Part shown: positions 3,337-60,254 of the stretch, one piece after another
Layout of the letters: the number at the start of each line of letters is the position of its first letter
Numbering within the stretch: the stretch's first letter is position 1
Source: a virus
Lineage: Duplodnaviria; Caudoviricetes
DNA: 64,000 nucleotides
Reading direction: 5' to 3' (one strand)
Virus record (IMG/VR): IMGVR_UViG_3300032301_000360
Location: 3,819-67,818 of that record
Program-made: the position numbers and the translations under genes
Notes under the pieces: generated by a model
What the model saw: only the letters and a program-made list of their open reading frames with translations
Told to the model about the DNA's origin: nothing
The model's database searches: none

Positions 3337-4410
3337 ATGTTACGCAATCAAATCCTGGACACCAGTTTCAATACAGAAGGTCATTCCCATGCGGTTGTAA
3401 GCAGTTTAAATCACAAGTTTTGGCAGGAATGCACAGCCTCCGAAGTGGTGAGTGTGCGCTTTGAACTGGACACCAAAGGCACAGAGCTGGAAATGTTCCA
3501 CAAGATCAAGCAAGTGTGTTTGAATTTGTTTCCCCAAACACTAACACAGGGCAACTTTATTGGTTCCAGTGAGTTTTACGTACAAGCAGGAAATTTGGTG
3601 CTTGTGCAAGTCCGAAATGGATCTTATCGCAAAAACCGTTCAGGTATCTGTGAGTATGCCATTGACATCATGGGCGATGAAGTTAATGTGCATACAGTGC
3701 AGGCACAAATTGAACACATCATGCGCAGCAAAAAATTGGTAAAGATCAGTTGGCATTATCTGACCAATCGTGGCACAGACTCTGCCAGTTTGCATGTGAC
3801 TGGACTCAACCAGCATATCCGTGATGAGTACTATCCTTGGTTCAAGCAGGGCGTGGCTGAATTTATTAAAAGTTACTTTGACAACCCTGCTGCTGTGTTG
3901 GTGCTGTATGGCCCACCTGGCACAGGCAAGACCAGTTTCTTGCGCCACCTGTTGCTCACGCAGGGCGTGAATGCCATGGTCACATATGATGACAAGGTAC
4001 TAAACAAGGATGAGTTTTTTGTGAACTATCTGACTGATCAAGATCATGATGCACTCATTGTGGAAGATGCAGATGTGTTTCTGGCACCGCGTGAAGATGG
4101 TGAAAACACACTCATGAGCAAGTTCTTGAACGTGAGCGATGGACTCATTAAGATCATGAACAAAAAAATGATCTTTACCACCAACATCACACAGCTAAAC
4201 AAGATTGATGCAGCCCTTCTACGCCCTGGTCGTTGCTTTGACGCAGTGGAATTTCGTGAGTTGACACCTGTAGAAGCTGCATGTGCTGCCCAGGCAGCAG
4301 GGCAACCTGAACAAGATTGGGGCTCACAACGTGCATGGAGTTTGGCTCAGCTGTTTAATGTGGGGGAACAGTCTAGTCCCACCAACCGGTTCCGTATGGG
4401 GTTTAGCTAA
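3337..4410 (+). CDS. AAA+ ATPase
   Basis: Walker A GPPGTGKT, Walker B LIVED, sensor TTN, arginine finger LLRPGR. Confidence 0.9.
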   Translation: MLRNQILDTSFNTEGHSHAVVSSLNHKFWQECTASEVVSVRFELDTKGTELEMFHKIKQVCLNLFPQTLTQGNFIGSSEFYVQAGNLVLVQVRNGSYRKNRSGICEYAIDIMGDEVNVHTVQAQIEHIMRSKKLVKISWHYLTNRGTDSASLHVTGLNQHIRDEYYPWFKQGVAEFIKSYFDNPAAVLVLYGPPGTGKTSFLRHLLLTQGVNAMVTYDDKVLNKDEFFVNYLTDQDHDALIVEDADVFLAPREDGENTLMSKFLNVSDGLIKIMNKKMIFTTNITQLNKIDAALLRPGRCFDAVEFRELTPVEAACAAQAAGQPEQDWGSQRAWSLAQLFNVGEQSSPTNRFRMGFS

Positions 4411-48266: not shown

Positions 48267-49331
48267 ATGCAAATAACCACAAATGCTATCACAAACACTG
48301 TGCCAGCAATGGATCTTTCTCAAGTGGATCTAACCCACACTGTGGTGATGACCGATCTACATCTAGGTTTGAAAAACAATAGCAAGCAACACAACGAATG
48401 GTGTGTGCAATTCATTCAGTACATGATTGAACAAGCCCAAGCTGAAAACATTAAAACCTGTTTGTTTTTGGGCGATTGGAGCCATAATAGAAGTTCAGTG
48501 AGCGTGGTCACACTCAATTACAGCTTGCAATGCTTGCGAATGTTGAGTGAAGCTTTTGATAATGTGATCATGATCTTGGGCAATCATGATTTGTATTTCA
48601 GAGACAAGCTGGACATGCACTCTATTCCGTATGTGCAGGAATTTAACAACATTCACTTGATTACAGAAATCACCACACAAGGTGACTGTGTGTTTGTGCC
48701 CTGGCTGGTGGGTGATCAATGGAAGCAGATTCCCAAAATCAAGCAGCCATACATGTTGTGTCATGCAGAAATTGCACGCTTCAAGATGAACGCCATGGTG
48801 GAATTGCCTGATCATGGTGGGTTAAATTCGGATCACTTTAAAAATCAGGAACTTGTGATAAGCGGACATTTCCATAAGCGTCAACGCAAGGGCAAAGTGT
48901 TGTACATGGGTAATGCTTTTCCTCACAATTATTCAGATGTGCATGATGATGATCGTGGTTTCATGTTCTGGCAGCCTGGTTCAGAACCTGTGTTCCATGC
49001 ATGGCCAGGAGCACCCAAATATCGCACATGGGAATTAAGCCAGGTACTCATGAATCCCACCACATATATTGATGATCACACATTTGTGAAGATCAATGTG
49101 GATGTCAACATGAATTATGAAGACTTAAACTTTGTTAAAGAGTTGTTTGAACAAGAACTTCAAGCCCTGGATGTCACATGGGTGCACGCAAAACAAGGTG
49201 CAGACACAGAGTTCACAGATGAGGACATACAGTTTGAAAGTGTGGACCAAATTGTACTGGATCACTTGAATGCCATTGAGAGTGTCACCATGGATCGCCA
49301 GCTATTAACCCAAATCTATCAGAGCATTTGA
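48267..49331 (+). CDS. gp47: recombination endonuclease subunit, gp47/Mre11/SbcD
   Basis: DLHLG, GDW, GNHD, HAE, SGHFH phosphoesterase motifs. Confidence 0.93.
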   Translation: MQITTNAITNTVPAMDLSQVDLTHTVVMTDLHLGLKNNSKQHNEWCVQFIQYMIEQAQAENIKTCLFLGDWSHNRSSVSVVTLNYSLQCLRMLSEAFDNVIMILGNHDLYFRDKLDMHSIPYVQEFNNIHLITEITTQGDCVFVPWLVGDQWKQIPKIKQPYMLCHAEIARFKMNAMVELPDHGGLNSDHFKNQELVISGHFHKRQRKGKVLYMGNAFPHNYSDVHDDDRGFMFWQPGSEPVFHAWPGAPKYRTWELSQVLMNPTTYIDDHTFVKINVDVNMNYEDLNFVKELFEQELQALDVTWVHAKQGADTEFTDEDIQFESVDQIVLDHLNAIESVTMDRQLLTQIYQSI

Positions 49332-51106
49332 GCATGATCAACTTTAAATCCTTAACCATTAAGAACTTCCTTTCTGTAGGTGCAGTAACTCAGTCTGTGG
49401 ATTTTACTAGCACAGGTATCACTCTTGTGTTAGGTGAAAACTTGGACCTGGGTGGTAACGGCTCACGTAATGGTGTGGGAAAAACTGTGATCTTTAATGC
49501 ACTGTCGTATGCATTGTTTGGTCAAGCCATCACCAACATTAAGCGAGACAACCTGATCAACACCATCAACAAGAAAAACATGGTGGTGAGTGTGGAGTTT
49601 GATATCAATGGGCAGGTTTATCACATTGAGCGAGGCCGTAAGCCCAACTTTTTCAAGTATGTGGTGGGTGACAAAATGGTGGACACTCAAGGCGCAGATG
49701 AAGCACAGGGTGAGAACAAAGAGACACAAAAAGAAATCGACACAGTGTTGGGTCTTACTCACACCATGTTCAAGCATATTGTGTGTTTGAACACTTATAC
49801 AGAACCATTTTTGCAAATGGGTTCCGGAAAACAACGAGAAATTATTGAAGAGCTGTTGGGAATCACATTACTCAGTCAGAAGGCAGAAAACCTCAAAGAG
49901 TTGATCAAAGTCACAAAGACCAAGATTGAACAAGAAGAGTTTCAGATTCACACCATCAAAAACAGCAACCAGCGTATCCAAAACACCATTCAAGACCTGG
50001 AAAAGAAGATCCTCACATGGGATAACAATCATGACACAGAGTTGTCTGGATTGATGCAAGCCATACAAGAATTGAGCAACTTGGATGTGGTTAACGAAAT
50101 TTCAGCACACAAACAAAATCAACTCAGATCAGAAAAGCAAGCCCAAGCACAAATCTTGAAGAGAGAACTTGCAAGCAGGCAGACAGTGTTGACTCAGTTG
50201 GAAAAGAATCAAAATCGGCTATTGCGTGAATATGCACAATTGCAATCACACACATGCCCCATGTGTGGCAGTCACATGCATGATGCAAAACAGGACCAAC
50301 TCACTTCACAGATGGAACAGGAGATCACACAACAAGATGCACAAATCCAGGAACTTGCGCCTCAAGTTGCAGAGTTTACTCATGCATTACAGGAACTCAC
50401 CCAAGAGTTGACAGATCAGCCTGTACAAGACACTTGGTATCAAACACTGGAACAGGCATATGATCATCGCAACAGCTTGCAACAGTTGGAAAAAGAGGTC
50501 ATCAAGCTCACACAGCAACTGAACCCGTATCAGGATCAAAAACAAAACCTCACAAACACCCTACAAGATATCACATATGATGAACTCAATCAGCTACAAA
50601 CACTCAAGGACCATCAAGAATTTCTGCTCAGACTGTTGGTGAACAAAGACTCTTTTATACGCAAAAAGATTATTGATCAAAACTTGGCCTATCTGAATCA
50701 CAGGCTCACAGAGTATCTGAATGTGTTAAGCATTCAACATGATGTTCAGTTTGTGAATGACCTGAGTGTGCAGATCAATTACATGGGTCAGGACATGGAC
50801 TTTGCACAGTTGAGCAGAGGCGAGAGCACCAGAGTGATCCTGGCACTTTCATGGTCATTCAGAGACATCTGGGAAAACATGAACACCAGCTTGAACTTCA
50901 TGGGTGTGGATGAGCTGATTGATGTGGGACTGGATGCCACAGGTGTGGAAAAGAGCATGGAAGTGCTCAAGACTTTTAGCAGAGATCGTCAAAAGCATGT
51001 GATGCTGATCAGTCATCGTGACGAGCTCTTGCCGCGTGTGGATCGCGTACTCACAGTGGTCAAGGAGGATTCATTTACCAGGCTGCAAACAGACTGGGAA
51101 TCATGA
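49328..51106 (+). CDS. gp46: recombination ATPase subunit, gp46/Rad50/SbcC
   Basis: NGVGKT Walker A, CPMC zinc hook, LSRGE signature, DELID Walker B, ISH. Confidence 0.95.
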   Translation: MSMINFKSLTIKNFLSVGAVTQSVDFTSTGITLVLGENLDLGGNGSRNGVGKTVIFNALSYALFGQAITNIKRDNLINTINKKNMVVSVEFDINGQVYHIERGRKPNFFKYVVGDKMVDTQGADEAQGENKETQKEIDTVLGLTHTMFKHIVCLNTYTEPFLQMGSGKQREIIEELLGITLLSQKAENLKELIKVTKTKIEQEEFQIHTIKNSNQRIQNTIQDLEKKILTWDNNHDTELSGLMQAIQELSNLDVVNEISAHKQNQLRSEKQAQAQILKRELASRQTVLTQLEKNQNRLLREYAQLQSHTCPMCGSHMHDAKQDQLTSQMEQEITQQDAQIQELAPQVAEFTHALQELTQELTDQPVQDTWYQTLEQAYDHRNSLQQLEKEVIKLTQQLNPYQDQKQNLTNTLQDITYDELNQLQTLKDHQEFLLRLLVNKDSFIRKKIIDQNLAYLNHRLTEYLNVLSIQHDVQFVNDLSVQINYMGQDMDFAQLSRGESTRVILALSWSFRDIWENMNTSLNFMGVDELIDVGLDATGVEKSMEVLKTFSRDRQKHVMLISHRDELLPRVDRVLTVVKEDSFTRLQTDWES

Positions 51107-51511
51107 ATCTGACTGGGTGCGTTTGAGGATCTGTTGTTTGTTGTTTTCAAATAATGTTTCAAACTCACACCACACATATGAAAAATATCTGGTGTGATTG
51201 GCCACCTGTAAGGCAGGTAGCCATTTTGCATCAAAACATGCCCATGTGCCCTTGTGGTTGATTCGCACCACCACAAACCACATGTCACCTTCATCTACTG
51301 TGACCAATGTTTGTTTGATCCATGTGTCCAGTTGAAGAATGGGTGCATTACCACTCAGCTTCTCAAAGGGGAACGACTTATAAAACTTACTCTCAATCAC
51401 CAGCTTGTGCATGTGACTGGGTGGAATAATGTCACTCTTGAAATAGTTGATCTGTTGGGCATCCATGCCACTCTTGCGATGAGCGTTTGACCCTCCCAGA
51501 AACGCACCTGA
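51101..51511 (-). pseudogene. C-terminal part of the resident Holliday-junction resolvase, disrupted by insertion
   Basis: The frame extends upstream of the tracked ATG as SGAFLGGSNAHRKSG-MDAQQINYFKSDIIPP...IESKFY (D...ExK); in-frame TAG at 51530-51532 upstream, so the N-terminus is missing here. Confidence 0.75.
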
Positions 51512-51530
51512 ATAATTTATTGCTGCCGCC

Positions 51531-51538
51531 TATAAATA
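51531..51538 (+). promoter_or_regulatory. T4-type late promoter TATAAATA
   Basis: Exact consensus; second TAAATA at 51543-51548; AGGAGG SD before ATG 51567. Confidence 0.75.
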
Positions 51539-51566
51539 CACCTAAATAAATGTTTAGGAGGTAGTA

Positions 51567-52400
51567 ATGAATTATTCAAAGATATATAACAGGTTGATTG
51601 AATCTGCTCAAACCAGATTTGGTCCAGTATCATCATATACTGAAGTCCATCATATCCTTCCACGATGCATAGGTGGTAATGATAATGCATCCAACCTTGT
51701 GGTATTAACACCAGAAGAGCATTATGTGGCCCACCTGTTGTTAATGAAGATGCATCCAGATAATACAAAGCTTGTTTATGCTGCATTTATGATGACTGTA
51801 GGAAAACACAGAAATAATAAATTATACGGATGGTTGAAACGTAAGAGATTTGAAAATCCTATGCCACTCTCCACTAGACTCAAAATTAAGGAGAAGAGAG
51901 CTCTTCAAGTAATGAGTCCCAGGTCTGAGGAAACCAAACAAAAGATGAGGGGACCTAATCCAAAAAAGGCTAGGAAAGGTGAGCTCAATGGATTTTATGG
52001 CAAGAAGCACAGTGCGGAAACTTTGGCTATTCTAGCAGTCAAATGTCCTAACCCAGGTTTAAAAAGAGGACCAGATACCATTCAAAAACTAAAAGACTCG
52101 TTTACTGATGAGCGTAGAGCTGAGGCATCTCGACGTTTAACAGAAAGGAATAAAAACATAACTGAAGAGCACAGACAAGCTACCAGGAATTCAAATATTC
52201 GAAGAGGGATAGAGAAACAAAAGACTAAAATGCGTGCCAATCTGCCTCTATATAAGAGCATATTTGAAAACCTAACAGCTGGATATGAGGTTAAGCATAT
52301 AGCAAAACACCTTGAAGTTGACTATGCATTAGTGTGGAATATTAAGACTAAATGGGAGTATTACTTGATAGCATTTAAGGAAGTTTGTGATGAACAGTAA
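51567..52400 (+). CDS. HNH homing endonuclease with NUMOD3-type DNA-binding motifs
   Basis: YTEVHHILPRCIGG.D.ASNLV.LT.EEH.VAH.LL; later FYGKKHSAET. Confidence 0.9.
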   Translation: MNYSKIYNRLIESAQTRFGPVSSYTEVHHILPRCIGGNDNASNLVVLTPEEHYVAHLLLMKMHPDNTKLVYAAFMMTVGKHRNNKLYGWLKRKRFENPMPLSTRLKIKEKRALQVMSPRSEETKQKMRGPNPKKARKGELNGFYGKKHSAETLAILAVKCPNPGLKRGPDTIQKLKDSFTDERRAEASRRLTERNKNITEEHRQATRNSNIRRGIEKQKTKMRANLPLYKSIFENLTAGYEVKHIAKHLEVDYALVWNIKTKWEYYLIAFKEVCDEQ

Positions 52401-52878
52401 AAATAAGGGGAATACTTACGAAAGAAAGATATCAAATTTACTCTCAGGTAGATTTAAAACCCTGTTAAACGAGGACAAAGGATTCAGACGCAATCCTGAT
52501 AGTGGCAGCTATTTCGGAGGCAGCAATTCTACCAAATTGCAAACACATAATTTGGATTATGCAGTATTTGGCGATATAATTTGTCCCAAAAATTTCAAAT
52601 TCACTATAGAGTGCAAGCACTATAAGTCCCCTCCATCATTTAAATCCATAGTCGAACAAAAAGTAACAAGTTGGGATGGATGGATTGATCAAGCACTACA
52701 GGACGCAGCTAGTGCTAAAAAACATCCTATGATACTGATCAAATACAACAATGTTGATGACTTTGTCATGCTACAAGAGCCATTGGCGACAGGAAACCTT
52801 ATTCTAACATACAAAGGATTTCATTTGTATAAAATTGGGGAATTATTGGTACAACCGGACAGCTACTTTTTCGAATGA
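52387..52878 (+). CDS. Holliday-junction resolvase-like PD-(D/E)xK nuclease (cassette-borne copy)
   Basis: SKNKGNTYER...RRNPDSGSYFGGSN...GDIICP...IECKHY...WI.QA. Confidence 0.8.
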   Translation: MMNSKNKGNTYERKISNLLSGRFKTLLNEDKGFRRNPDSGSYFGGSNSTKLQTHNLDYAVFGDIICPKNFKFTIECKHYKSPPSFKSIVEQKVTSWDGWIDQALQDAASAKKHPMILIKYNNVDDFVMLQEPLATGNLILTYKGFHLYKIGELLVQPDSYFFE

Positions 52879-52960: not shown

Positions 52961-53060
52961 GATGTGATGTACCTGTGTGAAATATATGGTGTCATAGTTA
53001 TCTAATCGATTGACGCTGCATATGCGAATACCCTAGCATGATTCAGTAAGGACGTCACAC

Positions 53061-53774
53061 ATGCATTATAAACCCAGATTCAGAAACAGCAGCTTCACCG
53101 TGTGGGTGGAACCAGCAGATCAGCTACGCCTAAAACAATTCGCACAACATGAGCTGGTGTTTTACAACACCATAATTGAAGCCATGGAAAGTCGCACCAG
53201 GGCATTCAGCAAACAAGTTGCAGAAGCCACAGATGCACAAATACAGATCATGTGCGACTCTATGATCACAAAACAACTGCCGGCCTCAGGTGCTTTGCCA
53301 GACTGGATGCAATTTGTCACACAGCAAATTCTCAAGCCCAAGTTAGCAGTGCTGCCTGAATGCAAGCACATGATGACACGCAGCCTCATGCAGTTTTTTA
53401 GAGAACAAGCTGTCATCTTAAAAGATCCCATCAATAACGATAAATTGGAAATCAGCTACAAAGTGGCTCCCCAAAATCTCAGCAAACTGGATTCCACCAC
53501 CAAGCGACATTTACAGATACCCAGATCTTGTGTGAGGGTACAATGGGATCCTGCACAGGAAGTCAGTTTGATTCACACACAATTGACCACCATGCCATTA
53601 AAAGTTCCCAATGTGAACCTTAATGAAAATGAGGGTTGGCATCTCATGGTGGTGCGCCAGGAACCAGGTCGGTATGTGCCACCTGACACGCCCTGGATGG
53701 TGGAATTCAAACAAACACACAATCAATACTTGATCAAACTCACGGACGCAGGATCAAACAGGCCCACCATGTGA
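53061..53774 (+). CDS. TnpB/Cas12-like recognition lobe only (WED-REC-WED), no RuvC
   Basis: RNSSFTVWVEP...VFYN...QFFR...LMVVRQEPG...W parallels TnpB RNKAFVVRLYP...FVYN...NFFR...NVTVRR..EG; the ORF ends where the RuvC-I GxDxG motif would begin; AAGGA SD. Alignment by eye against recalled TnpB sequence. Confidence 0.6.
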   Translation: MHYKPRFRNSSFTVWVEPADQLRLKQFAQHELVFYNTIIEAMESRTRAFSKQVAEATDAQIQIMCDSMITKQLPASGALPDWMQFVTQQILKPKLAVLPECKHMMTRSLMQFFREQAVILKDPINNDKLEISYKVAPQNLSKLDSTTKRHLQIPRSCVRVQWDPAQEVSLIHTQLTTMPLKVPNVNLNENEGWHLMVVRQEPGRYVPPDTPWMVEFKQTHNQYLIKLTDAGSNRPTM

Positions 53775-53789
53775 TCTGATCAGATCACA

Positions 53790-54190
53790 AACTCAGACCA
53801 TACCAGCTCAGAATGGCAGTACACTGCCTGTGTCCGATCTCCGCGAAGGGAGGTAAACCACATGGAGGAAGTTGTTAGCTCACCTCCGCTGGACAAGCTA
53901 ACAGAAAGGAAGAGACCTCTCACAGGCTGCTGTGATGTTTCTACATGTGATCGCCACAGCTCAAGGGTGGTCAACATGTGCAGGGGTCATTGACCCCTAA
54001 CCGAGTAGGGTTGTGACGTAGTCACGTAATGCCCAGAAGCGAGCTTGTTGTGGGGGAATGTAGGTACTCTGCCCCCACGATCTATCTGGATCACAAGCGA
54101 CTTGAGCTAGGCGGACACCTCATCGAAAGGCCGTTAAAAAACACTTCTCCCCTCACCGGGGAGAAGTGTGGCTCCGTCCTATCGAAATGG
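53790..54190 (+). ncRNA. putative large structured ncRNA (omega-RNA-like or new class)
   Basis: At least 8 helices found by eye, nested, including an H-type pseudoknot; no credible ORF; strand inferred from the upstream gene; ends approximate. Confidence 0.6.
54135..54169 (-). terminator. intrinsic terminator for the gp26/gp51-like transcript
   Basis: Perfect 12-bp stem ACACTTCTCCCC/GGGGAGAAGTGT with 5-nt loop, followed on the minus strand by a U-tract (plus-strand A-run 54136-54141). Confidence 0.75.
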
Positions 54191-54192
54191 AT

Positions 54193-54372
54193 TTACTTCT
54201 TAGGGGTTTTATATGCATCAGCTTGGGCCTGAAAATGAGTATTAATCTGTTCATTTAGATGCGTTAATTGTGCCATAGAAATCGAATACGCATCAATATA
54301 TGATATGCCCCCATTCATGTAATAAACCACATGACATATATCTTGTTCTATTTGCTTTATTGCCCGCTCCAT
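54193..54372 (-). CDS. gp51-like baseplate hub assembly protein (possibly the -1 frameshift extension of the gp26-like gene; not in ORF track)
   Basis: Hand translation MERAIKQIEQDICHVVYYMNGGISYIDAYSISMAQLTHLNEQINTHFQAQADAYKTPKK; the frame is open back across the gp26-like stop to 54441. Confidence 0.7.
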   Translation of the reverse strand: MERAIKQIEQDICHVVYYMNGGISYIDAYSISMAQLTHLNEQINTHFQAQADAYKTPKK

Positions 54373-54419
54373 GTCTGAAAGTAATTTGGTTATGTCCTCT
54401 GCATTACCTGATAGGAGCG

Positions 54420-55256
54420 TTAGTCGAAAAAATTTGTTGGGTCAAAATCTAACTCCTGTTCCCATTCATTACTGCATGACTCACACAATAAGGTAGTTTT
54501 ATTCATTATACCGCTGTTATTGATATCTTTTATTTTTGAACTAATTGCATCAGCTTCTCTTTTGGTTAAACTTAGCACAAATTCTTTTATGAATCCTTCC
54601 TCTTCCACGACTTGTCCACTGGATTGTATTTGTACAGACACCACACTCATGGTTACCAAATCCAGAAGTCTGGAACTTATCCTTTGCACAATTTTGGTTA
54701 TTTCTATAGCCTGCTGTTCTGTGTCCAGATCTGTTTGACTATTCAGTACCTTACCTGCTTTGGACTCTTCAATTTCATTTAATAGACTTAAATGTCGCTG
54801 TTTGAAGTTAAATGGTCGCACTCTAACGACATATTCATCATTTATTAATACACTTGGGTCATTTTCTGTTTTTGTTTGGGTATCTAACATATCTGTTAAG
54901 TTGAACATAAAGCTCTGAGCTTTTTTACATGCTGGACATTCTCCTTCCCATTCCCACCGTGAACCATTTGTGGCTGCTCTGATAGCCACAAATAATGCAT
55001 TAATGTCAGGTTCAACTAGCATGCTTGAATCAGTTATATCAGGTACGCAGCTTTGAATAATTTGAACCATGGTTTCCCCATTGAGTAGGGCATCAGGTGT
55101 TTTTAAAAGAATTTGATCTCTAACTGTGAGAGCATAAACGGCTACTTCTTTGTTAATACTGGTTTTAACTGAATCAGGGGGGTAGAATTGAAGCTGGCTG
55201 GGTAAGCTACAATAAAGCTTGGGTACTCTATGTTTGGCCATTAATGGGTTTTGCAT
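54420..55256 (-). CDS. gp26: baseplate hub assembly chaperone, T4 gp26-like
   Basis: NPL...R.PKLY..LPS...YP; LKTPDALLNG; D...L.VAIR.AT.G; CPAC and CESC zinc pairs; TAAATA at 55278-55283 (minus strand). Confidence 0.8.
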   Translation of the reverse strand: MQNPLMAKHRVPKLYCSLPSQLQFYPPDSVKTSINKEVAVYALTVRDQILLKTPDALLNGETMVQIIQSCVPDITDSSMLVEPDINALFVAIRAATNGSRWEWEGECPACKKAQSFMFNLTDMLDTQTKTENDPSVLINDEYVVRVRPFNFKQRHLSLLNEIEESKAGKVLNSQTDLDTEQQAIEITKIVQRISSRLLDLVTMSVVSVQIQSSGQVVEEEGFIKEFVLSLTKREADAISSKIKDINNSGIMNKTTLLCESCSNEWEQELDFDPTNFFD

Positions 55257-55323
55257 GTGTTATCCTTCAATAAGCATTATTTAATACGTTTAAATACATG
55301 TGAATCTTTTTTAGAGAAGAAAT

Positions 55324-57579
55324 ATGGATACTATCAAAGTTGACAGGGACCAGAGTGATAGTTGGGCCCAAGAAAGAACCTTGAAAGACCTACTTAGGGC
55401 AGCAGAATCTAATAATAGCATATTAAAAGCAGTTGCAAAAGCTAGGAATATTGATTTAACTGGTATTGGGCAGTTAGACAGCGCCGCCAGCGGCGCTGCG
55501 AGTAGTGTAACCACTTTAGTGAGAGGTGTTGATCAAGGAACCAAGGCCGTAAGATCATACGAACAGGCTGTATATGATTTGCAACGTAAGACTGACAGAT
55601 TTTCTAGAGGAATAGCAGACGGTGCTAGAGGTTTAAAACAGGCTCCCAATATAGCTGATGCTATCACTAATGCAGGCAGGGGAATAGCTAATTTTGGGGA
55701 TACTTTGGCTGCCGTGGGGGGCAGAGGCAGAGGGGCTGGTCTTGCTAGAGGATTGGGTGCAGCCACAAGGATGGCAGGTGCATTAGCTATTACTAGCGGA
55801 GCAGTAATAGGCAGATTTATTGAAGCAGGCGATGTCTTCCGGGACATGATAGGTTCAGGTGTTATTTTTGATGGCACTATTAGTGGCATGATTCAATCTG
55901 TGCGTAGCACTGGTATGAGTTTGGAAAGTGCAGGACAGCTAATACAAAGTCATAGTGAAGCCATATTGATCACAGGGGAACAGAGATTTTTTAACACTGT
56001 GAATGCAATGCAGGGCACATTCAACAGAATGGGTTTAGATGCGACCAGAGGGGCTGAAGCTTTAGCAAATTTGACAGAAGAGCAACGACTGAGTGGTAGT
56101 TTATTCATGACTACTGAAGATCAACGTATTGCTGCCAACACTACCATGTTAAATCAAATGCAAGCTCAAGCCAGATTGACTGGTGTTAGCCTTAGGCGTC
56201 AGCAAACTGAGCAGCAAGCTTTGGCACGTAGAGAAAAGGTAAGGATACTGGAGGCTGGTATGAGTGGACCAGAACGTGATACGTTTATAGCCCAGCGATC
56301 AGCTTACTTGAATATGGGGATTAGTGCTGACATAATAGAAGAAGCATTTATTGAAGCCAGAACTGGAACTAGATCACAACAAGGAGGATTTGCTCAAAAT
56401 ATACTGGGTACAGAATATAACAGATTAATTCAACAAATTAGAACAGGAGAAGCTGCAGGTGGTTTGGATCAGCGTGAAGCTGTGGCAGCCGCGACTGAAA
56501 GGTTCAGGTCCCAAAATGAAACATTATTAACTCGTGGTCAAAGCCCCTTTGCTACATTTGGCAGATCTGCAGTGGTAGGCCTGATGGAAGCAGGCAGACC
56601 TCTCACGGGACCTCCAGGTCAGGAAGCAGAGACCCAAGCAAGACGAGACCAGTTTGTAAGAGCACTAGAGGGTCAAACCATGTTAGCAGACAGTACTGTG
56701 AAATTATATGAGATGCAGGATAGTGTTGGAAAAATTATGGGCAGAATAGAAGGTACTCTAGCTAAACTTGCAGAACCTGCTGTGGCGCTCTTTGCGACTA
56801 ATATGGCTGCTGCGGCCACAAGAGTGGCAGACTTTTTAATGGGTCGGGAGGGTGTAACTTTAGATCAAATGCTAGTAAGTATGGGCATAGCTATGGGGGC
56901 AGAAGGTGCTAGGAATGCAGAAGTGGGTGCTGCCCTGATAGCTTTGGCAGGCGGTGGTATTTTAGCAAGTAGGCAGGCAGCTGGAGCAGGCGGTGGAGGT
57001 GGCGGTGGAGGTGGCGGTGGAGGTGGCGGGGGTGGTGGAGGAATACCACCTGTTGTAGCGGGTTTTGGTCGTGGAGTAGCTGGTGCAGTTGGTTCTGCAA
57101 TAGGTATAGAACAGCTTGTAAGTGCGTATACCGCATGGACACAAGGAAACTATTTGGAAGCTGCTGGACATTTAGGAGTGGCTGCGGCAAGGAATTCACC
57201 TGCGGGAAGAGTATTGGGTATAGCAGATTTTTTAACGGAGTTGGCTACAGGTAGAGGTTTAGTTGCCAGAACAACAGGTATATTTGGGGGGGATGCTAGT
57301 GTACGAGGTCAAGAGGCTGCTACACAGGCAGCTGCGGCGGCGCAACTAAGTGCGCCTGGACGAACTCCTTTGCCTGCAATACCCCCAACAGGATCTTTGA
57401 CACCAGAACAGAGAGTAGCCCTAGATGCTCAGATCCAAACTATTGTAACCCGGATAGGTGAGTTACAGGCTTCAGGGGCAGATGCTAGAAACCGAGAGCT
57501 ATTAGAACTACAACGTGAAAGCAATGAACTTCAACGAAGATTATTAAATGAGATACGTGGTGTAAGAAATAATCAATAA
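55324..57579 (+). CDS. tape-measure-like (T4 gp29-like) protein
   Basis: 751-aa Ala/Gly/Gln-rich helical ORF with hydrophobic segments, divergent from the gp26-like gene and upstream of the portal; TAAATA at 55291-55296. Confidence 0.65.
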   Translation: MDTIKVDRDQSDSWAQERTLKDLLRAAESNNSILKAVAKARNIDLTGIGQLDSAASGAASSVTTLVRGVDQGTKAVRSYEQAVYDLQRKTDRFSRGIADGARGLKQAPNIADAITNAGRGIANFGDTLAAVGGRGRGAGLARGLGAATRMAGALAITSGAVIGRFIEAGDVFRDMIGSGVIFDGTISGMIQSVRSTGMSLESAGQLIQSHSEAILITGEQRFFNTVNAMQGTFNRMGLDATRGAEALANLTEEQRLSGSLFMTTEDQRIAANTTMLNQMQAQARLTGVSLRRQQTEQQALARREKVRILEAGMSGPERDTFIAQRSAYLNMGISADIIEEAFIEARTGTRSQQGGFAQNILGTEYNRLIQQIRTGEAAGGLDQREAVAAATERFRSQNETLLTRGQSPFATFGRSAVVGLMEAGRPLTGPPGQEAETQARRDQFVRALEGQTMLADSTVKLYEMQDSVGKIMGRIEGTLAKLAEPAVALFATNMAAAATRVADFLMGREGVTLDQMLVSMGIAMGAEGARNAEVGAALIALAGGGILASRQAAGAGGGGGGGGGGGGGGGGGGIPPVVAGFGRGVAGAVGSAIGIEQLVSAYTAWTQGNYLEAAGHLGVAAARNSPAGRVLGIADFLTELATGRGLVARTTGIFGGDASVRGQEAATQAAAAAQLSAPGRTPLPAIPPTGSLTPEQRVALDAQIQTIVTRIGELQASGADARNRELLELQRESNELQRRLLNEIRGVRNNQ
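56989..57042 (+). repeat. poly-glycine tract (18 Gly)
   Basis: GGCGGTGGAGGT x3 plus 18 degenerate nt. Confidence 0.9.
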
Positions 57580-57644
57580 ATTTCATTCCAGTATATAACA
57601 ACATGTAAATACCCTAGTAAACACACAGGATAACACACCCTCCC

Positions 57645-60254
57645 ATGGCCTGGCGCAAATATTTCACCACAGTACCCAGTCAAGCTCAAATCAGCAGAAA
57701 ACTGGAACAACATAACAGAGAAAACGGCAAGGCTGGCACCAGCCACAAGTTCAGCAGCTACCTGCCCGAAGTGTATGCGGGTGCACCCAACAGAATTGAA
57801 CGTTATGTGCAATATGACCAGGCAGATCTGGACTCAGAAATCAACAGATCCTTGGACACCATTGCAGAATTCTGCACACAGAACGCAGATGACGATGCCC
57901 CCTCACCATTCAGATTGATCTATCGTGAAGATCTCACAGAAACAGAAAATGATCTGTTGCAGGACAGCCTCACACAATGGTGCAGAATTAACAGATTCAA
58001 CCAACGCATTTTCCGCACCTTCAGAAACACCATCAAGTATGGTGATCAATTTTTCATAAGAGATCCTGAAACCTTTGAGCTGCTGTGGGTGGATGCAGCC
58101 AAGGTGGAAAAGATTGTGGTGAATGAAGCTGAGGGCAAGGCTGTGGAACAGTATGTGATCAAAGACCTAGACTTCAACTTGCAAAGTTTAACAGCCACCA
58201 ATCCCATGGTGCATGACAATTATTCTTTCCCAGGTGGATATCCCAGATCAAGTAACCCATCAGCAGGTGCTGGCAACATCAATTATGGTCAGCCCACCAC
58301 ACCAGGTGGCCGCACCAGCCGTTTTTATAATCCCACCAACTCCATGGCTGTGGATGCCACCCATGTGGTGCATTTGAGTTTAAGCGAAGGCATGGATCAT
58401 TATTGGCCCTTTGGTTTAAGCATTCTGGAAGCTGTGTATAAAACATACAAGCAGAAAGATTTGTTGGAAGACTGTATTCTGATTTATCGCATTGTGAGAG
58501 CACCAGAACGCCGTGTGTTTTACATTGACGTGGGTCAGCTACAGGGCCAGCGAGCCATGGCTTATGTGGAAAGAGTCAAGAACGAAATCTATCAGCGCCG
58601 TCTGCCCAACAGGTGTTTGGGTTTGGACACAAAGATTTATCTGCTAGACGGTAGACTGATACCACTCAGACAGATCATTCTGGAACATGAATCTGGTAAG
58701 ACAAACTGGGTGTATAGCTGCTGTCCACAAACTGGTAACATAGTGCCAGGTCTGATCACCTGGGCAGGCGAGACACGCTCACAAACGCAGGTAGTCCGAC
58801 TCACTCTGGATAATGGTCAAACCATAGTGTGCACTCCTGATCACAAGTTCCCCATACTGGGCAAGGGATTTGTGGAAGCTCAGAATCTACAACTGGGAGA
58901 AAGCTTCATACCTGCCTACTTCAGACAAGAGCATGTGACTCAGTCCAAACAGCCCAAAAACAAGTATGAACAAGTGTTTGATCCTGCCACCAAACAGTGG
59001 AAGTTTGTGCACAGAATGGTGGCTGAGTTCTTCCATGACTTTGAGGGAGATGCCAGACTGGTTCAAGAGCACACACATGTGGAGAAATATGCTAACCTGC
59101 CCAAACAAACTGTGCATCATAGAGACTTCAACCGATTCAACAATAATCCAGACAATCTTGCATGGATGAACAGCAAGGACCACATCTGCTATCATGCTGA
59201 TCAAGGGCAAGCCTGGCAGCAGGCCTTCACACAGGCTAACCCTTGTACAACCAAAGTGAAGTTTGGTCCTGATCTGGTAAAAAACCTGCTCAAGCATGAA
59301 GGATTTCCCACATATGATGACTTCCTCCAGAAAGAGCCCCACTTGAATCACAAGCTTGTGAGCGTGGAATGGTTGGATACACCTTGTGACACAGGCACCA
59401 TAACTGTGGACGGTGATGAGATCTGGCACAACTATCACACCTTTGCAATTGAAGGGGGCATCTTCACTAAAAACAGTGGGGGCGGAACCAGCATCATAGA
59501 CACAGCCTACAACCCCATCAGCATCACAGAAGATTTCTTCTTGGCCACCAACACAGAACAGCGTGGCACCAGAATTGAAAGTTTGGCTGGGGGAGAGGCA
59601 TTGGGCACCATAGATGACTTGAAATATTTCAACAACAAGCTCATGCGCGGCTTGGGCATTCCCAGTAGCTATCTGCCATCAGGGCCAGATGATGGCACAG
59701 CAGTGTACAATGATGGTAAAGTGGGTACTGCATTCATTCAGGAATATCGCTTCAACAAATACTGCCAACGTTTGCAAAACAGTGTGGTGCACATTTTTGA
59801 TCGCGAATTCAAACTGTTCCTCAAACACAGAGGCATCACAGGCATCACAGCAGACATGTTTGAATTGGCATTCAATCCGCCGCAATCGTTCAGCGAATAT
59901 CGCAAGATGGCCATAGATGCAGAACGTGCCAACTTGTTCAACACTGTGATGGGTGGAGATGCTGTCAAATACTTGAGTAAAAGATGGGCCATGGAAAAAT
60001 ATCTGGGACTTACTCCTGCTGATATTGTAGAAAATGAAAAACAATGGAAGGAAGAGAATGCCAAAAGAGTGCAGGACAAGACTGGCACCACTGTCATGGA
60101 TGACAACATGATGGGATTGGGAGCAGTGGGGGTGAAGCCAAATCCCATGGTGGATCAGTTGCCTCCAGCTGAGATGCCAGGATTGCCACCACAAGCAGCT
60201 CCCTCCATGGAACCTGCTGCTGTGCCTCCTCCTGAAAATGCACCAGGTTTATAA
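57645..60254 (+). CDS. gp20: portal vertex protein, T4 gp20-like, containing an intein
   Basis: R.ERY.QYD..D.DSEI..SLD.IAEF; LLED.ILIYRIVRAPERRVFYIDVG; EDFF; RG.RIE.L.GG..LG.IDDLKYF..KL.RGL.IP.SYL; TAAATA at 57606-57611. Confidence 0.95.
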   Translation: MAWRKYFTTVPSQAQISRKLEQHNRENGKAGTSHKFSSYLPEVYAGAPNRIERYVQYDQADLDSEINRSLDTIAEFCTQNADDDAPSPFRLIYREDLTETENDLLQDSLTQWCRINRFNQRIFRTFRNTIKYGDQFFIRDPETFELLWVDAAKVEKIVVNEAEGKAVEQYVIKDLDFNLQSLTATNPMVHDNYSFPGGYPRSSNPSAGAGNINYGQPTTPGGRTSRFYNPTNSMAVDATHVVHLSLSEGMDHYWPFGLSILEAVYKTYKQKDLLEDCILIYRIVRAPERRVFYIDVGQLQGQRAMAYVERVKNEIYQRRLPNRCLGLDTKIYLLDGRLIPLRQIILEHESGKTNWVYSCCPQTGNIVPGLITWAGETRSQTQVVRLTLDNGQTIVCTPDHKFPILGKGFVEAQNLQLGESFIPAYFRQEHVTQSKQPKNKYEQVFDPATKQWKFVHRMVAEFFHDFEGDARLVQEHTHVEKYANLPKQTVHHRDFNRFNNNPDNLAWMNSKDHICYHADQGQAWQQAFTQANPCTTKVKFGPDLVKNLLKHEGFPTYDDFLQKEPHLNHKLVSVEWLDTPCDTGTITVDGDEIWHNYHTFAIEGGIFTKNSGGGTSIIDTAYNPISITEDFFLATNTEQRGTRIESLAGGEALGTIDDLKYFNNKLMRGLGIPSSYLPSGPDDGTAVYNDGKVGTAFIQEYRFNKYCQRLQNSVVHIFDREFKLFLKHRGITGITADMFELAFNPPQSFSEYRKMAIDAERANLFNTVMGGDAVKYLSKRWAMEKYLGLTPADIVENEKQWKEENAKRVQDKTGTTVMDDNMMGLGAVGVKPNPMVDQLPPAEMPGLPPQAAPSMEPAAVPPPENAPGL
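58614..59474 (+). mobile_element. intein (287 aa) with HNH-type endonuclease
   Basis: Starts CLGLDTKIYLLDG; block B TPDHKF; ends HTFAIEGGIFTKN followed by Ser+1; internal VHRMVAEFF...VHHRDFNRFNNNPDNL; excision restores RRLPNR-SGGG. Confidence 0.92.

Follow-up and report, generated by a model that had tools for sequence, protein, structure and literature searches.

The guide RNAs of TnpB, TldR and Cas12f lie downstream of their own genes and on the same strand, and TldRs have retained RNA-guided binding after the decay of RuvC (10.1101/2023.11.30.569447; PMC10691335). In the TldR guide RNA, a scaffold of ~100 nt is joined to a guide of 9-16 nt, for which target sites in promoters can be identified (10.1101/2023.11.30.569447). 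TldRs are described as keeping the overall bilobed fold, with RuvC decayed or C-terminally truncated. Natural nuclease-dead binders are also found in dCas12f and Cas12k. Here we describe a locus of T4-like jumbo phages that can be compared with these systems: a gene for a 237-aa protein, whose predicted fold resembles the recognition lobe of TnpB and Cas12f, is followed by a large structured RNA. The TnpB derivatives in the literature that we searched are RuvC-mutated or C-terminally truncated; none lacks the whole lobe and none comes from T4-like jumbo phages, and the same search returned no description of such an RNA-protein pair.

Results

Genome context of the locus

The window, by which we mean the whole 64-kb stretch of DNA analysed here, is part of a 67.8-kb IMG/VR virus record with an estimated completeness of 16%. 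The source virus is a T4-like jumbo phage, and related phage contigs extend to 271-341 kb. The RNA is sited in a 418-nt gap between the 237-aa ORF and a convergent ORF of 59 aa (Table 1), and in all loci its position is fixed and syntenic, with a resolvase on one side and baseplate genes on the other. Judged by gp46, the closest isolates are Sinorhizobium phage Phosso and the Pseudomonas PA5oct group (43-44% amino-acid identity); HMM, nhmmer and whole-record searches found neither the ORF nor the RNA in Pseudomonas phage PA5oct and Sinorhizobium phage Phosso. Among 50,697 GenBank phages, there was no match to the region by blastn or megablast, and none by tblastn to the ORF or to a distant member of its family. 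The RNA motif pair was likewise absent from 185,579 bacterial and archaeal species genomes.

Table 1. Features of the locus and its surroundings, in coordinates of the window
Feature	Position	Strand	Basis or remark
gp47/gp46-like recombination genes	48267-51106
Putative sigma70-like promoter (TTGACG, 18 nt, TAGCAT)	53010..53039	+	consensus scan
AAGGA Shine-Dalgarno	about 53049	+
237-aa ORF ("half-TnpB" by predicted fold)	53061..53774	+	AF2 model, Foldseek, VIA-align
Variable leader ahead of the RNA core: 8-bp palindrome TGTGATCTGATCAGATCACA that overlaps the ORF stop codon	53771..53790	+	read from sequence
RNA 5' domain	53796..53910	+	covariation
Conserved single-stranded GACCAUA (DNA GACCATA)	53796-53802	+
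P1	53803-07/53888-92	+	encloses hairpin 53815-19/53824-28, stem 53829-32/53859-62 and S1
Hairpin	53815-19/53824-28	+
Stem, with 53837-42/53849-54 inside	53829-32/53859-62	+
Pseudoknot 1	S1 53864-68/53883-87; S2 53873-79/53897-903	+
Middle hairpins region	53911..53979	+	helices 7-9
Two-part stem	53911-16/53937-42 and 53920-23/53932-35	+
Long hairpin, whose loop 53958-65 enters pseudoknot 2	53943-55/53966-79	+
Pseudoknot 2	loop 53958-65 (AGCUCAAG) with 54101-08 (CUUGAGCU)	+	helix 10
Central domain, between the strands of pseudoknot 2	53983..54100	+	helices 11-16
Hairpin, then invariant CUAACCGAGUAGGG	53983-87/53993-97	+
Stem around variable hairpin 54013-17/54021-25	54008-10/54032-34	+
Stem around 54050-56/54072-78 and 54079-82/54089-92	54043-47/54094-98	+
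Conserved 15-nt loop AAUGUAGGUACUCUG	within 54050-56/54072-78	+
RNA 3' domain	54116..54192	+	helices 17, 18
12-bp hairpin	54141-52/54158-69	+	between two repeat-motif copies
Direct-repeat motifs	CCUCAUCGAAAGG 54118-30; CCUAUCGAAAUGG 54178-90	+
Same 12-bp hairpin, then TTTTTT; intrinsic-terminator-like, for convergent baseplate genes	54136..54169	-
Variable sequence 3' of the scaffold, candidate guide position	54193..54225	+	tail comparison
59-aa ORF, convergent to the 237-aa ORF	54193-54372	-
Baseplate-hub gene	54420-55256	-
gp20 portal gene with intein	57645-60254

Homologs, covariation and strand

A first-pass annotation, with pairings found by eye, had proposed a multi-domain RNA fold at 53790-54190. 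On either strand, the gap has a far more stable predicted fold than shuffled sequence (z = -4.5). Since the folding of a single sequence decides no more than this, homologs were collected: homologous intergenic regions were taken from 18 other phage contigs, giving an alignment of 19 sequences (A6) with 54-92% nucleotide identity to the window. RNA-motif scans of viral and metagenome contigs, with the conserved motifs of the central domain as retrieval probes, supplied more distant copies, which were verified by nhmmer. The relatives of the 237-aa ORF are 46-81% identical to it, and their contigs share the synteny and, where the contig reaches that far, a noncoding gap of ~430 nt. At nine main-clade loci the RNA has 82-92% nucleotide identity to the window and the protein, in the six searched, 59-65% identity; in this clade the RNA has changed less than the protein encoded beside it.

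RNAalifold on A6 showed compensatory changes at 43 of 78 predicted pairs. The model that we tested was assembled by hand and has 111 pairs in 18 helices, including two pseudoknots; as controls, the 3' partners were slid by 1-3 columns, and 500 shuffles were run. Over the 19 loci, 94.9% of the cells are paired in the model versus 36-47% in the slid controls, double-sided changes occur at 63 pairs versus 14-21, and the covariation score is 0.405 versus 0.089 or less; none of the 500 shuffles attained any of the observed measures. The comparison confirms that positions 53796-54192 of the plus strand encode a real structured RNA of ~395 nt, as the annotation had supposed. Conservation of the RNA stops at about 54192.

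The strand is given by the wobble pairs. There are 126 G.U cells versus 17 A.C cells, and this excess identifies the folded molecule as the plus strand and as an RNA, not a symmetric DNA feature; the same asymmetry rules out a minus-strand RNA or a DNA structure. A protein-coding reading was rejected as well, as no common open frame runs across the element in the 19 loci and the ATG at 53862 is unconserved. So was a decayed TnpB pseudogene, in view of the strong structural selection on the region and of an empty six-frame search with PF01385.

Anatomy of the RNA

In the 5' domain, P1 covaries at 2 pairs (CCAGC/GCUGG to UCGGC/GCCGA). The loop of S1 pairs with a segment outside P1, forming pseudoknot 1, and S2 covaries at 5 pairs. 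The H-type pseudoknot proposed in the first-pass annotation is thus upheld with its S1 unchanged and its second stem, drawn there as 53873-80/53896-903, trimmed at one end; the small hairpin enclosed by P1 had also been drawn as it stands in the covariation-supported model. A covariance model of the 5' domain (R1) scores 133.5 bits in the window. On a shallow alignment, RNAalifold had paired the 5' end with 54104-15 in a closing helix; on the deeper alignment that helix is only 57% paired, and it is P1 that covaries. Just upstream, where the leader lies in the window, other loci have a different small hairpin, GAGACCATCTC.

Covariation continues through the middle hairpins, at 5 of the 6 pairs of helix 7, 1 of 4 in helix 8 and 12 of 13 in helix 9. 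Pseudoknot 2 (helix 10) shows double changes at 6 of its 8 pairs, with variants such as AGCUCUAG/CUAGAGC, AGCUCCAG/CUGGAGC and UCUUGUG/CACAAGA. This helix had already been seen in the single sequence, as a long-range helix enclosing the central domain; it is a second pseudoknot, its 5' strand being the loop of the long hairpin. Within the central domain, helix 14 covaries at 5 of 5 pairs. Here the variable hairpin was recovered exactly as first drawn, 53982-89/53991-98 is retained in its core, and 54043-48/54093-98 loses one pair and still encloses the helix proposed inside it. Two other helices from the annotation were discarded: 53929-34/53955-60 is 76% paired, has zero compensatory changes and competes with supported helices, and 54108-15/54173-81 is 49% paired.

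The imperfect repeat noticed at 54118 and 54178 is real and has a third copy at 53897-53908, inside the 5' domain. Because the repeats of the 3' domain change in parallel (A to G, U to A), pairing between them is only partly supported. On the minus strand, the stem 54169-54141 gives a GC-rich hairpin with a T-run, as in an intrinsic terminator; the corresponding plus-strand A-run is kept in most homologs, not all.

Comparison with known RNA families agreed with the annotation, which had recognised no tRNA, tmRNA, RNase P or group I/II hallmarks and had suggested an undescribed noncoding RNA to be checked by cmscan and by covariation in homologs. Rfam 15 at gathering thresholds gave no hits in the whole window; at E<=10 with lax filters, the region 53500-54500 gave only three chance-level hits, of which the one inside the RNA was UPD-PKib (15.9 bits versus a gathering score of 39). 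ARAGORN found neither a tRNA nor a tmRNA, and the Rfam searches showed no similarity to known omega-RNA or sgRNA families. The RNA is a new structured family with two pseudoknots, and this is well supported independently of any TnpB-type reading of the locus.

Predicted fold of the 237-aa protein

The AlphaFold2 model of the 237-aa ORF, built from a 17-sequence alignment, has a pLDDT of 78 and a pTM of 0.76 and runs from a single beta-strand through a helical bundle to a beta-barrel. A Foldseek search of the PDB returned almost only Cas12f, Cas12k, TnpB, Cas12g/m/n and Fanzor, with probabilities up to 1.00. VIA-align gave Z-scores of 10.1-10.7 with 160-170 residues aligned: model residues 5-219 map to TnpB 1-173 or Cas12f 1-208, and the alignment stops where RuvC begins. 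In a second VIA-align run against 48,161 PDB representatives, the top 25 belonged without exception to Cas12, TnpB or Fanzor (Z 10.3-6.4); the highest-scoring unrelated match, a helical protein, reached Z 6.3 over only 88 residues. Matches in BFVD included TnpB/Fanzor transposases of giant viruses, together with two viral proteins of 269-280 aa that are uncharacterised. The predicted structure shows the superfamily feature of a WED beta-barrel interrupted by a helical REC domain. The best reading of the model is that the protein is a stand-alone WED+REC lobe of TnpB/Cas12f, with neither RuvC nor zinc-finger. The first-pass annotation had remarked that TnpB omega-RNAs also contain a pseudoknot, and the predicted fold of the upstream gene product bears this analogy out.

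The RuvC D-E-D triad and the TNB/zinc-finger insertion are absent, and the chain stops at residue 237, the point at which RuvC would start. A profile search of 1.84 billion representatives yielded 179 related clusters, and among the 150 listed none exceeds 345 aa; homologs of 605-2000 aa were sought and none was found. Six-frame searches of the 67.8-kb record gave nothing for PF01385 (OrfB_IS605 RuvC) and no Y1 transposase/TnpA. The ORF could be assigned to no Pfam family, and TnpB-related Pfam families had no match at E<=1 in the ORF or in 52 members of its family, PHROGs and the ESM Atlas returned nothing for the protein, and a profile search of PDB sequences with it returned nothing relevant. 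Of additional note, the protein has no sequence-level link to TnpB, and its fold is a prediction.

Linkage of gene and RNA

The RNA core begins ~22 nt after the stop codon of the ORF in the window and a few tens of bases after it elsewhere, on the same strand in the 19 loci, so that the RNA lies as an omega-RNA does, on the same strand and 3' of the protein gene. All complete loci in which the protein is at least 38% identical have the RNA directly downstream and co-oriented. Synteny persists in more distant homologs, at 29% and 23% identity, and no ORF follows directly on the gene there: in locus L084 the ORF-free sequence runs for about 0.7 kb up to the end of the contig and is strongly structured (z = -5.6), and in locus L097 the gap measures 885 nt. 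R1 gave no detection downstream of the most distant protein homologs; there, either the RNA is too diverged to be recognised or a different sequence has taken its place. The association of gene and RNA could also be mere synteny within one phage lineage.

Homology with phages of 96% and 80% identity spans the ORF and the RNA, stops at 54188-54193 and resumes at 57606; this breakpoint at the 3' end of the RNA indicates that the gene and the RNA are passed on together, as a unit. A promoter-like TTGAYN-17/18-TAKCAT is found at the same place before the ORF in most of 12 aligned loci (it is less clear in L013, L085 and L084), and no conserved promoter is evident across the aligned loci before the RNA itself. 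Taken together, these two observations suggest a single early transcript, in which the gene and the RNA would be transcribed together from the sigma70-like promoter.

Beyond the scaffold, the tails differ among loci, even where the RNAs are 92-96% identical. The tail from 54193, which in the window runs into the 3' end of the 59-aa ORF on the minus strand, is the only unstructured variable stretch of a size sufficient for a guide. Its sequence had no match within the 64-kb window (11-16-mers, up to 2 mismatches) or across the collected loci. In a TnpB-like layout, a guide, if there is one, would lie in this tail.

Discussion

Proposed mechanism and its alternatives

Based on our findings, we propose that the half-TnpB protein and the ~395-nt RNA form a nuclease-free ribonucleoprotein with the RNA as its cognate scaffold, a reading that we consider fairly probable. 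The RNA would be the counterpart of the TnpB omega-RNA or the Cas12f sgRNA and would act as the scaffold for the 237-aa protein; being oversized, it may stand in structurally for the protein half that is missing. Judging by TldR, dCas12f and Cas12k, such a particle would bind its nucleic-acid target without cutting it; which target is bound would depend on the variable stretch that begins at 54193, just 3' of the scaffold. Since the guide RNA is downstream on the same strand in TnpB, Cas12f and TldR, and since dead derivatives still bind, a ribonucleoprotein is the most economical reading of the locus. In solved TnpB and Cas12f complexes, much of the scaffold binding comes from the RuvC lobe. 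The absence of this lobe here counts against the ribonucleoprotein.

The proposal can be carried further, to a possibility that we hold only tentatively and would sooner doubt than assume. The pair may be a minimal RNA-directed machine in which the ~395-nt RNA replaces the whole RuvC lobe: a programmable binder, expressed early by lytic jumbo phages, that silences the DNA of the host or of rival phages or recruits a nuclease in trans, its guide being the exchangeable sequence 3' of the scaffold, at the homology breakpoints.

The same data can be read in other ways. The RNA may act by itself, as a ribozyme or as a large "ornate" phage RNA like GOLLD or ROOL, and be a mere neighbour of the half-TnpB gene. 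Its fold, large and multi-domain, contains two pseudoknots as well as long single-stranded motifs that are invariant, which would suit such a molecule, as would its conservation above that of the adjacent protein, its lack of likeness to known guide-RNA families and the fact that neither a guide nor a target was found in the window and the collected loci. An independent RNA, however, would hardly be expected always right behind the ORF and co-oriented with it, with no promoter of its own conserved across clades and with gene and RNA inherited as a single block; moreover, a protein that consists of an RNA/DNA-gripping fold, as predicted, and has no other domain needs a nucleic-acid partner. On balance, we think an autonomous RNA unlikely, while giving it some weight. 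A function in cis can be imagined from the hairpin at the 3' end, which with its T-run makes a good minus-strand terminator, and from the complementarity of the RNA 3' domain to the end of the convergent transcript: the element would be a 3' UTR that stabilises or regulates the ORF mRNA and terminates, or is antisense to, the baseplate transcripts, without a role in trans. But a terminator explains only about 30 of the 395 nt, several homologs lack the T-run while the hairpin persists and covaries, and 18 helices, two pseudoknots and invariant loops exceed what a stabilising UTR needs, which makes this explanation improbable.

Phages encode RNA mimics of CRISPR repeats, and the protein and RNA could together be an anti-defence decoy: by imitating the recognition lobe and the guide RNA of type V CRISPR or TnpB systems in the host, it would poison those systems. 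A putative early promoter of the sigma70 type and a protein that is, by its predicted fold, the nuclease-less half of a Cas12-like protein are what such a decoy might have. We nevertheless see little chance for it, as the family is broad and holds a fixed core position, unlike typical accessory anti-defence genes, and the RNA is unlike any known repeat or tracrRNA in Rfam. Least credible to us, and very improbable, is an element acting at the DNA level through single-stranded hairpins, such as a replication origin, a recombination hotspot or a packaging signal. It would fit the adjoining recombination genes gp46/gp47 and resolvase, and the homology with related phages that breaks exactly at the 3' end; it is opposed by the asymmetry of G.U and A.C cells, by the compensatory changes that maintain the pseudoknots and by the absence of iterons and AT-rich unwinding features.

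Whatever becomes of the TnpB reading, the RNA family merits a covariance model and an Rfam entry. If the ribonucleoprotein that we propose is a working particle, no known TnpB/Cas12-type system would have a smaller protein component than its 237 aa, nor a larger share of RNA. It would then show to what extent RNA can substitute for protein in RNA-guided machinery, and it would extend the series from TnpB to TldR and dCas12f as far as complete loss of the nuclease lobe. For a widespread clade of uncultivated T4-like jumbo phages, with 179 related protein clusters, it would mean a conserved early function that has so far been unstudied.

Comparison with known systems

Large, multi-domain, pseudoknotted noncoding RNAs of phage DNA have been described before as GOLLD, ROOL and HEARO/IscB omega-RNA, and in this respect the present RNA is like them. 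It differs in having no cmscan match to them and in being tied to a half-TnpB gene, not to tRNA clusters or IscB.

With TnpB and omega-RNA (reRNA) of IS200/IS605 elements, the likeness concerns both partners. The predicted WED+REC lobe superposes on residues 1-173 of TnpB, including ISDra2 TnpB (PDB 8H1J, 8EXA, 8EX9), with Z 10.1-10.6, and omega-RNA is likewise a structured, pseudoknotted RNA on the same strand and on the 3' side of the gene. Unlike TnpB, the phage pair has no RuvC or zinc-finger lobe, either in the protein or in the six-frame search of the record, and the phage locus has neither TnpA nor transposon ends, being fixed and syntenic in a phage core region. Unlike omega-RNA, the phage RNA starts after the stop codon, shows no sequence or Rfam similarity to it and has no defined guide.

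The best structural matches (Z about 10) are Cas12f, dCas12f-sigmaE and Cas12k with their sgRNAs (PDB 8DZJ, 8HR5, 9N9C, 8AXB), and in all of these, too, the tendency is for a protein of small size to be paired with a guide-RNA scaffold that is large and pseudoknotted. In contrast to them, the phage locus lacks a CRISPR array, having only the short direct-repeat motif in three copies, and lacks the RuvC lobe; and, in contrast to dCas12f and Cas12k, no sigma-factor or Tn7-like partner genes lie nearby.

TldR (Wiegand et al., 10.1101/2023.11.30.569447; Xiao et al., 10.64898/2026.09.22.753285) resembles the pair as an immobile, domesticated, nuclease-free derivative of TnpB with an RNA downstream; some TldRs are phage-borne, and in both cases binding without cutting is likely. 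The differences are again in both partners. Judging from its model, the phage protein has the recognition lobe only, whereas TldRs are bilobed. Mature TldR scaffolds measure roughly 100 nt (10.1101/2023.11.30.569447) and the phage RNA, at ~395 nt, about four times as much, and no target was found for it in the window and the collected loci. The carriers, too, are lytic T4-like jumbo phages, not prophages. The pair stands outside the systems closest to it, TnpB with its omega-RNA, TldR and Cas12f/dCas12f/Cas12k, in nuclease lobe, sequence homology and transposon context, and no guide could be defined for it in the window and the collected loci; it resembles them in the predicted fold of the recognition lobe, the layout of gene and RNA and the pseudoknotted scaffold.

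Repeated elements and the 3' edge of the RNA

The 3' end of the structured RNA that follows the half-TnpB ORF coincides exactly with one breakpoint (54193) of a hypervariable cassette; the other breakpoint (57606) lies just ahead of the portal gene. Between them, DNA similarity is undetectable with two related phage loci, L049, which is 96% identical on both flanks, and L094 (80%). At 54189-54192 and in homologs, CGRAAU is directly followed by GGAU in roughly two out of three loci, and because of this the conserved RNA scaffold may be 4 nt longer on its 3' side than the alignment core.

The RNA also carries three copies of a short motif. Between clades, the second and third copies undergo parallel changes (AUCGAAA to AUCGGAA and to AACGAAA), of which only part keep the pairing between the copies. 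The motif resembles a recognition site present in several copies, or else what is left of former repeat units.

In the 12-bp hairpin of the 3' domain, the loop of the window (TCACC, 54153-54157) is the exact inverse of that in the related locus L002 (GGTGA, 4213-4217), the two phages being 95% identical. This is consistent with a palindrome flipped by recombination. Upstream of the RNA, a perfect palindrome may be where the transcript is processed or attenuated between the half-TnpB ORF and the RNA. Its site has a 5-nt expansion in L002, and in other clades its position is taken by a different small hairpin, GAGACCAUCUC.

Features in and around the RNA
Feature	Position	Remarks
Shortened PDDEXK_15 ORF	51101-51466	minus strand
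Homing-endonuclease gene	51567-52400	NUMOD3; PHROG 655
Full PDDEXK_15 resolvase-like gene	52387-52878	plus strand
Perfect 8-bp palindrome	53771-53790	overlaps half-TnpB stop codon
Motif CUNANNGAAAGG / CUAUCGAAAUGG, three copies	53897-53908, 54118-54130, 54178-54190	
Hypervariable cassette	54194-57605	59-aa gp51-like ORF, baseplate-hub gene, 751-aa ORF
gp20 portal gene with intein	57645-60254	Pfam Intein_splicing and HNH_3 matches

Flanking genes and related phages

At 51101-52878, the homing-endonuclease gene and the full PDDEXK_15 gene adjoin the shortened ORF. The insert is common to the window and three related loci (L008, L010, L011); four others (L002, L004, L007, L009) are without it and have a single intact minus-strand resolvase gene. 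The portal-gene intein contains an HNH-type endonuclease domain (Pfam).

In the nearest isolates by gp46, the syntenic position between resolvase and baseplate hub is a 2.2-kb stretch annotated with tiny hypothetical ORFs only (Pseudomonas phage PA5oct, L086, NC_071039.1, 8018-10206) or an unannotated 1-kb gap adjoining an RNase HI gene (Sinorhizobium phage Phosso, L087, PV764938.1, 8414-9427). Neither interval gave an HMM match to the half-TnpB ORF or the RNA. Both may harbor other large RNAs.
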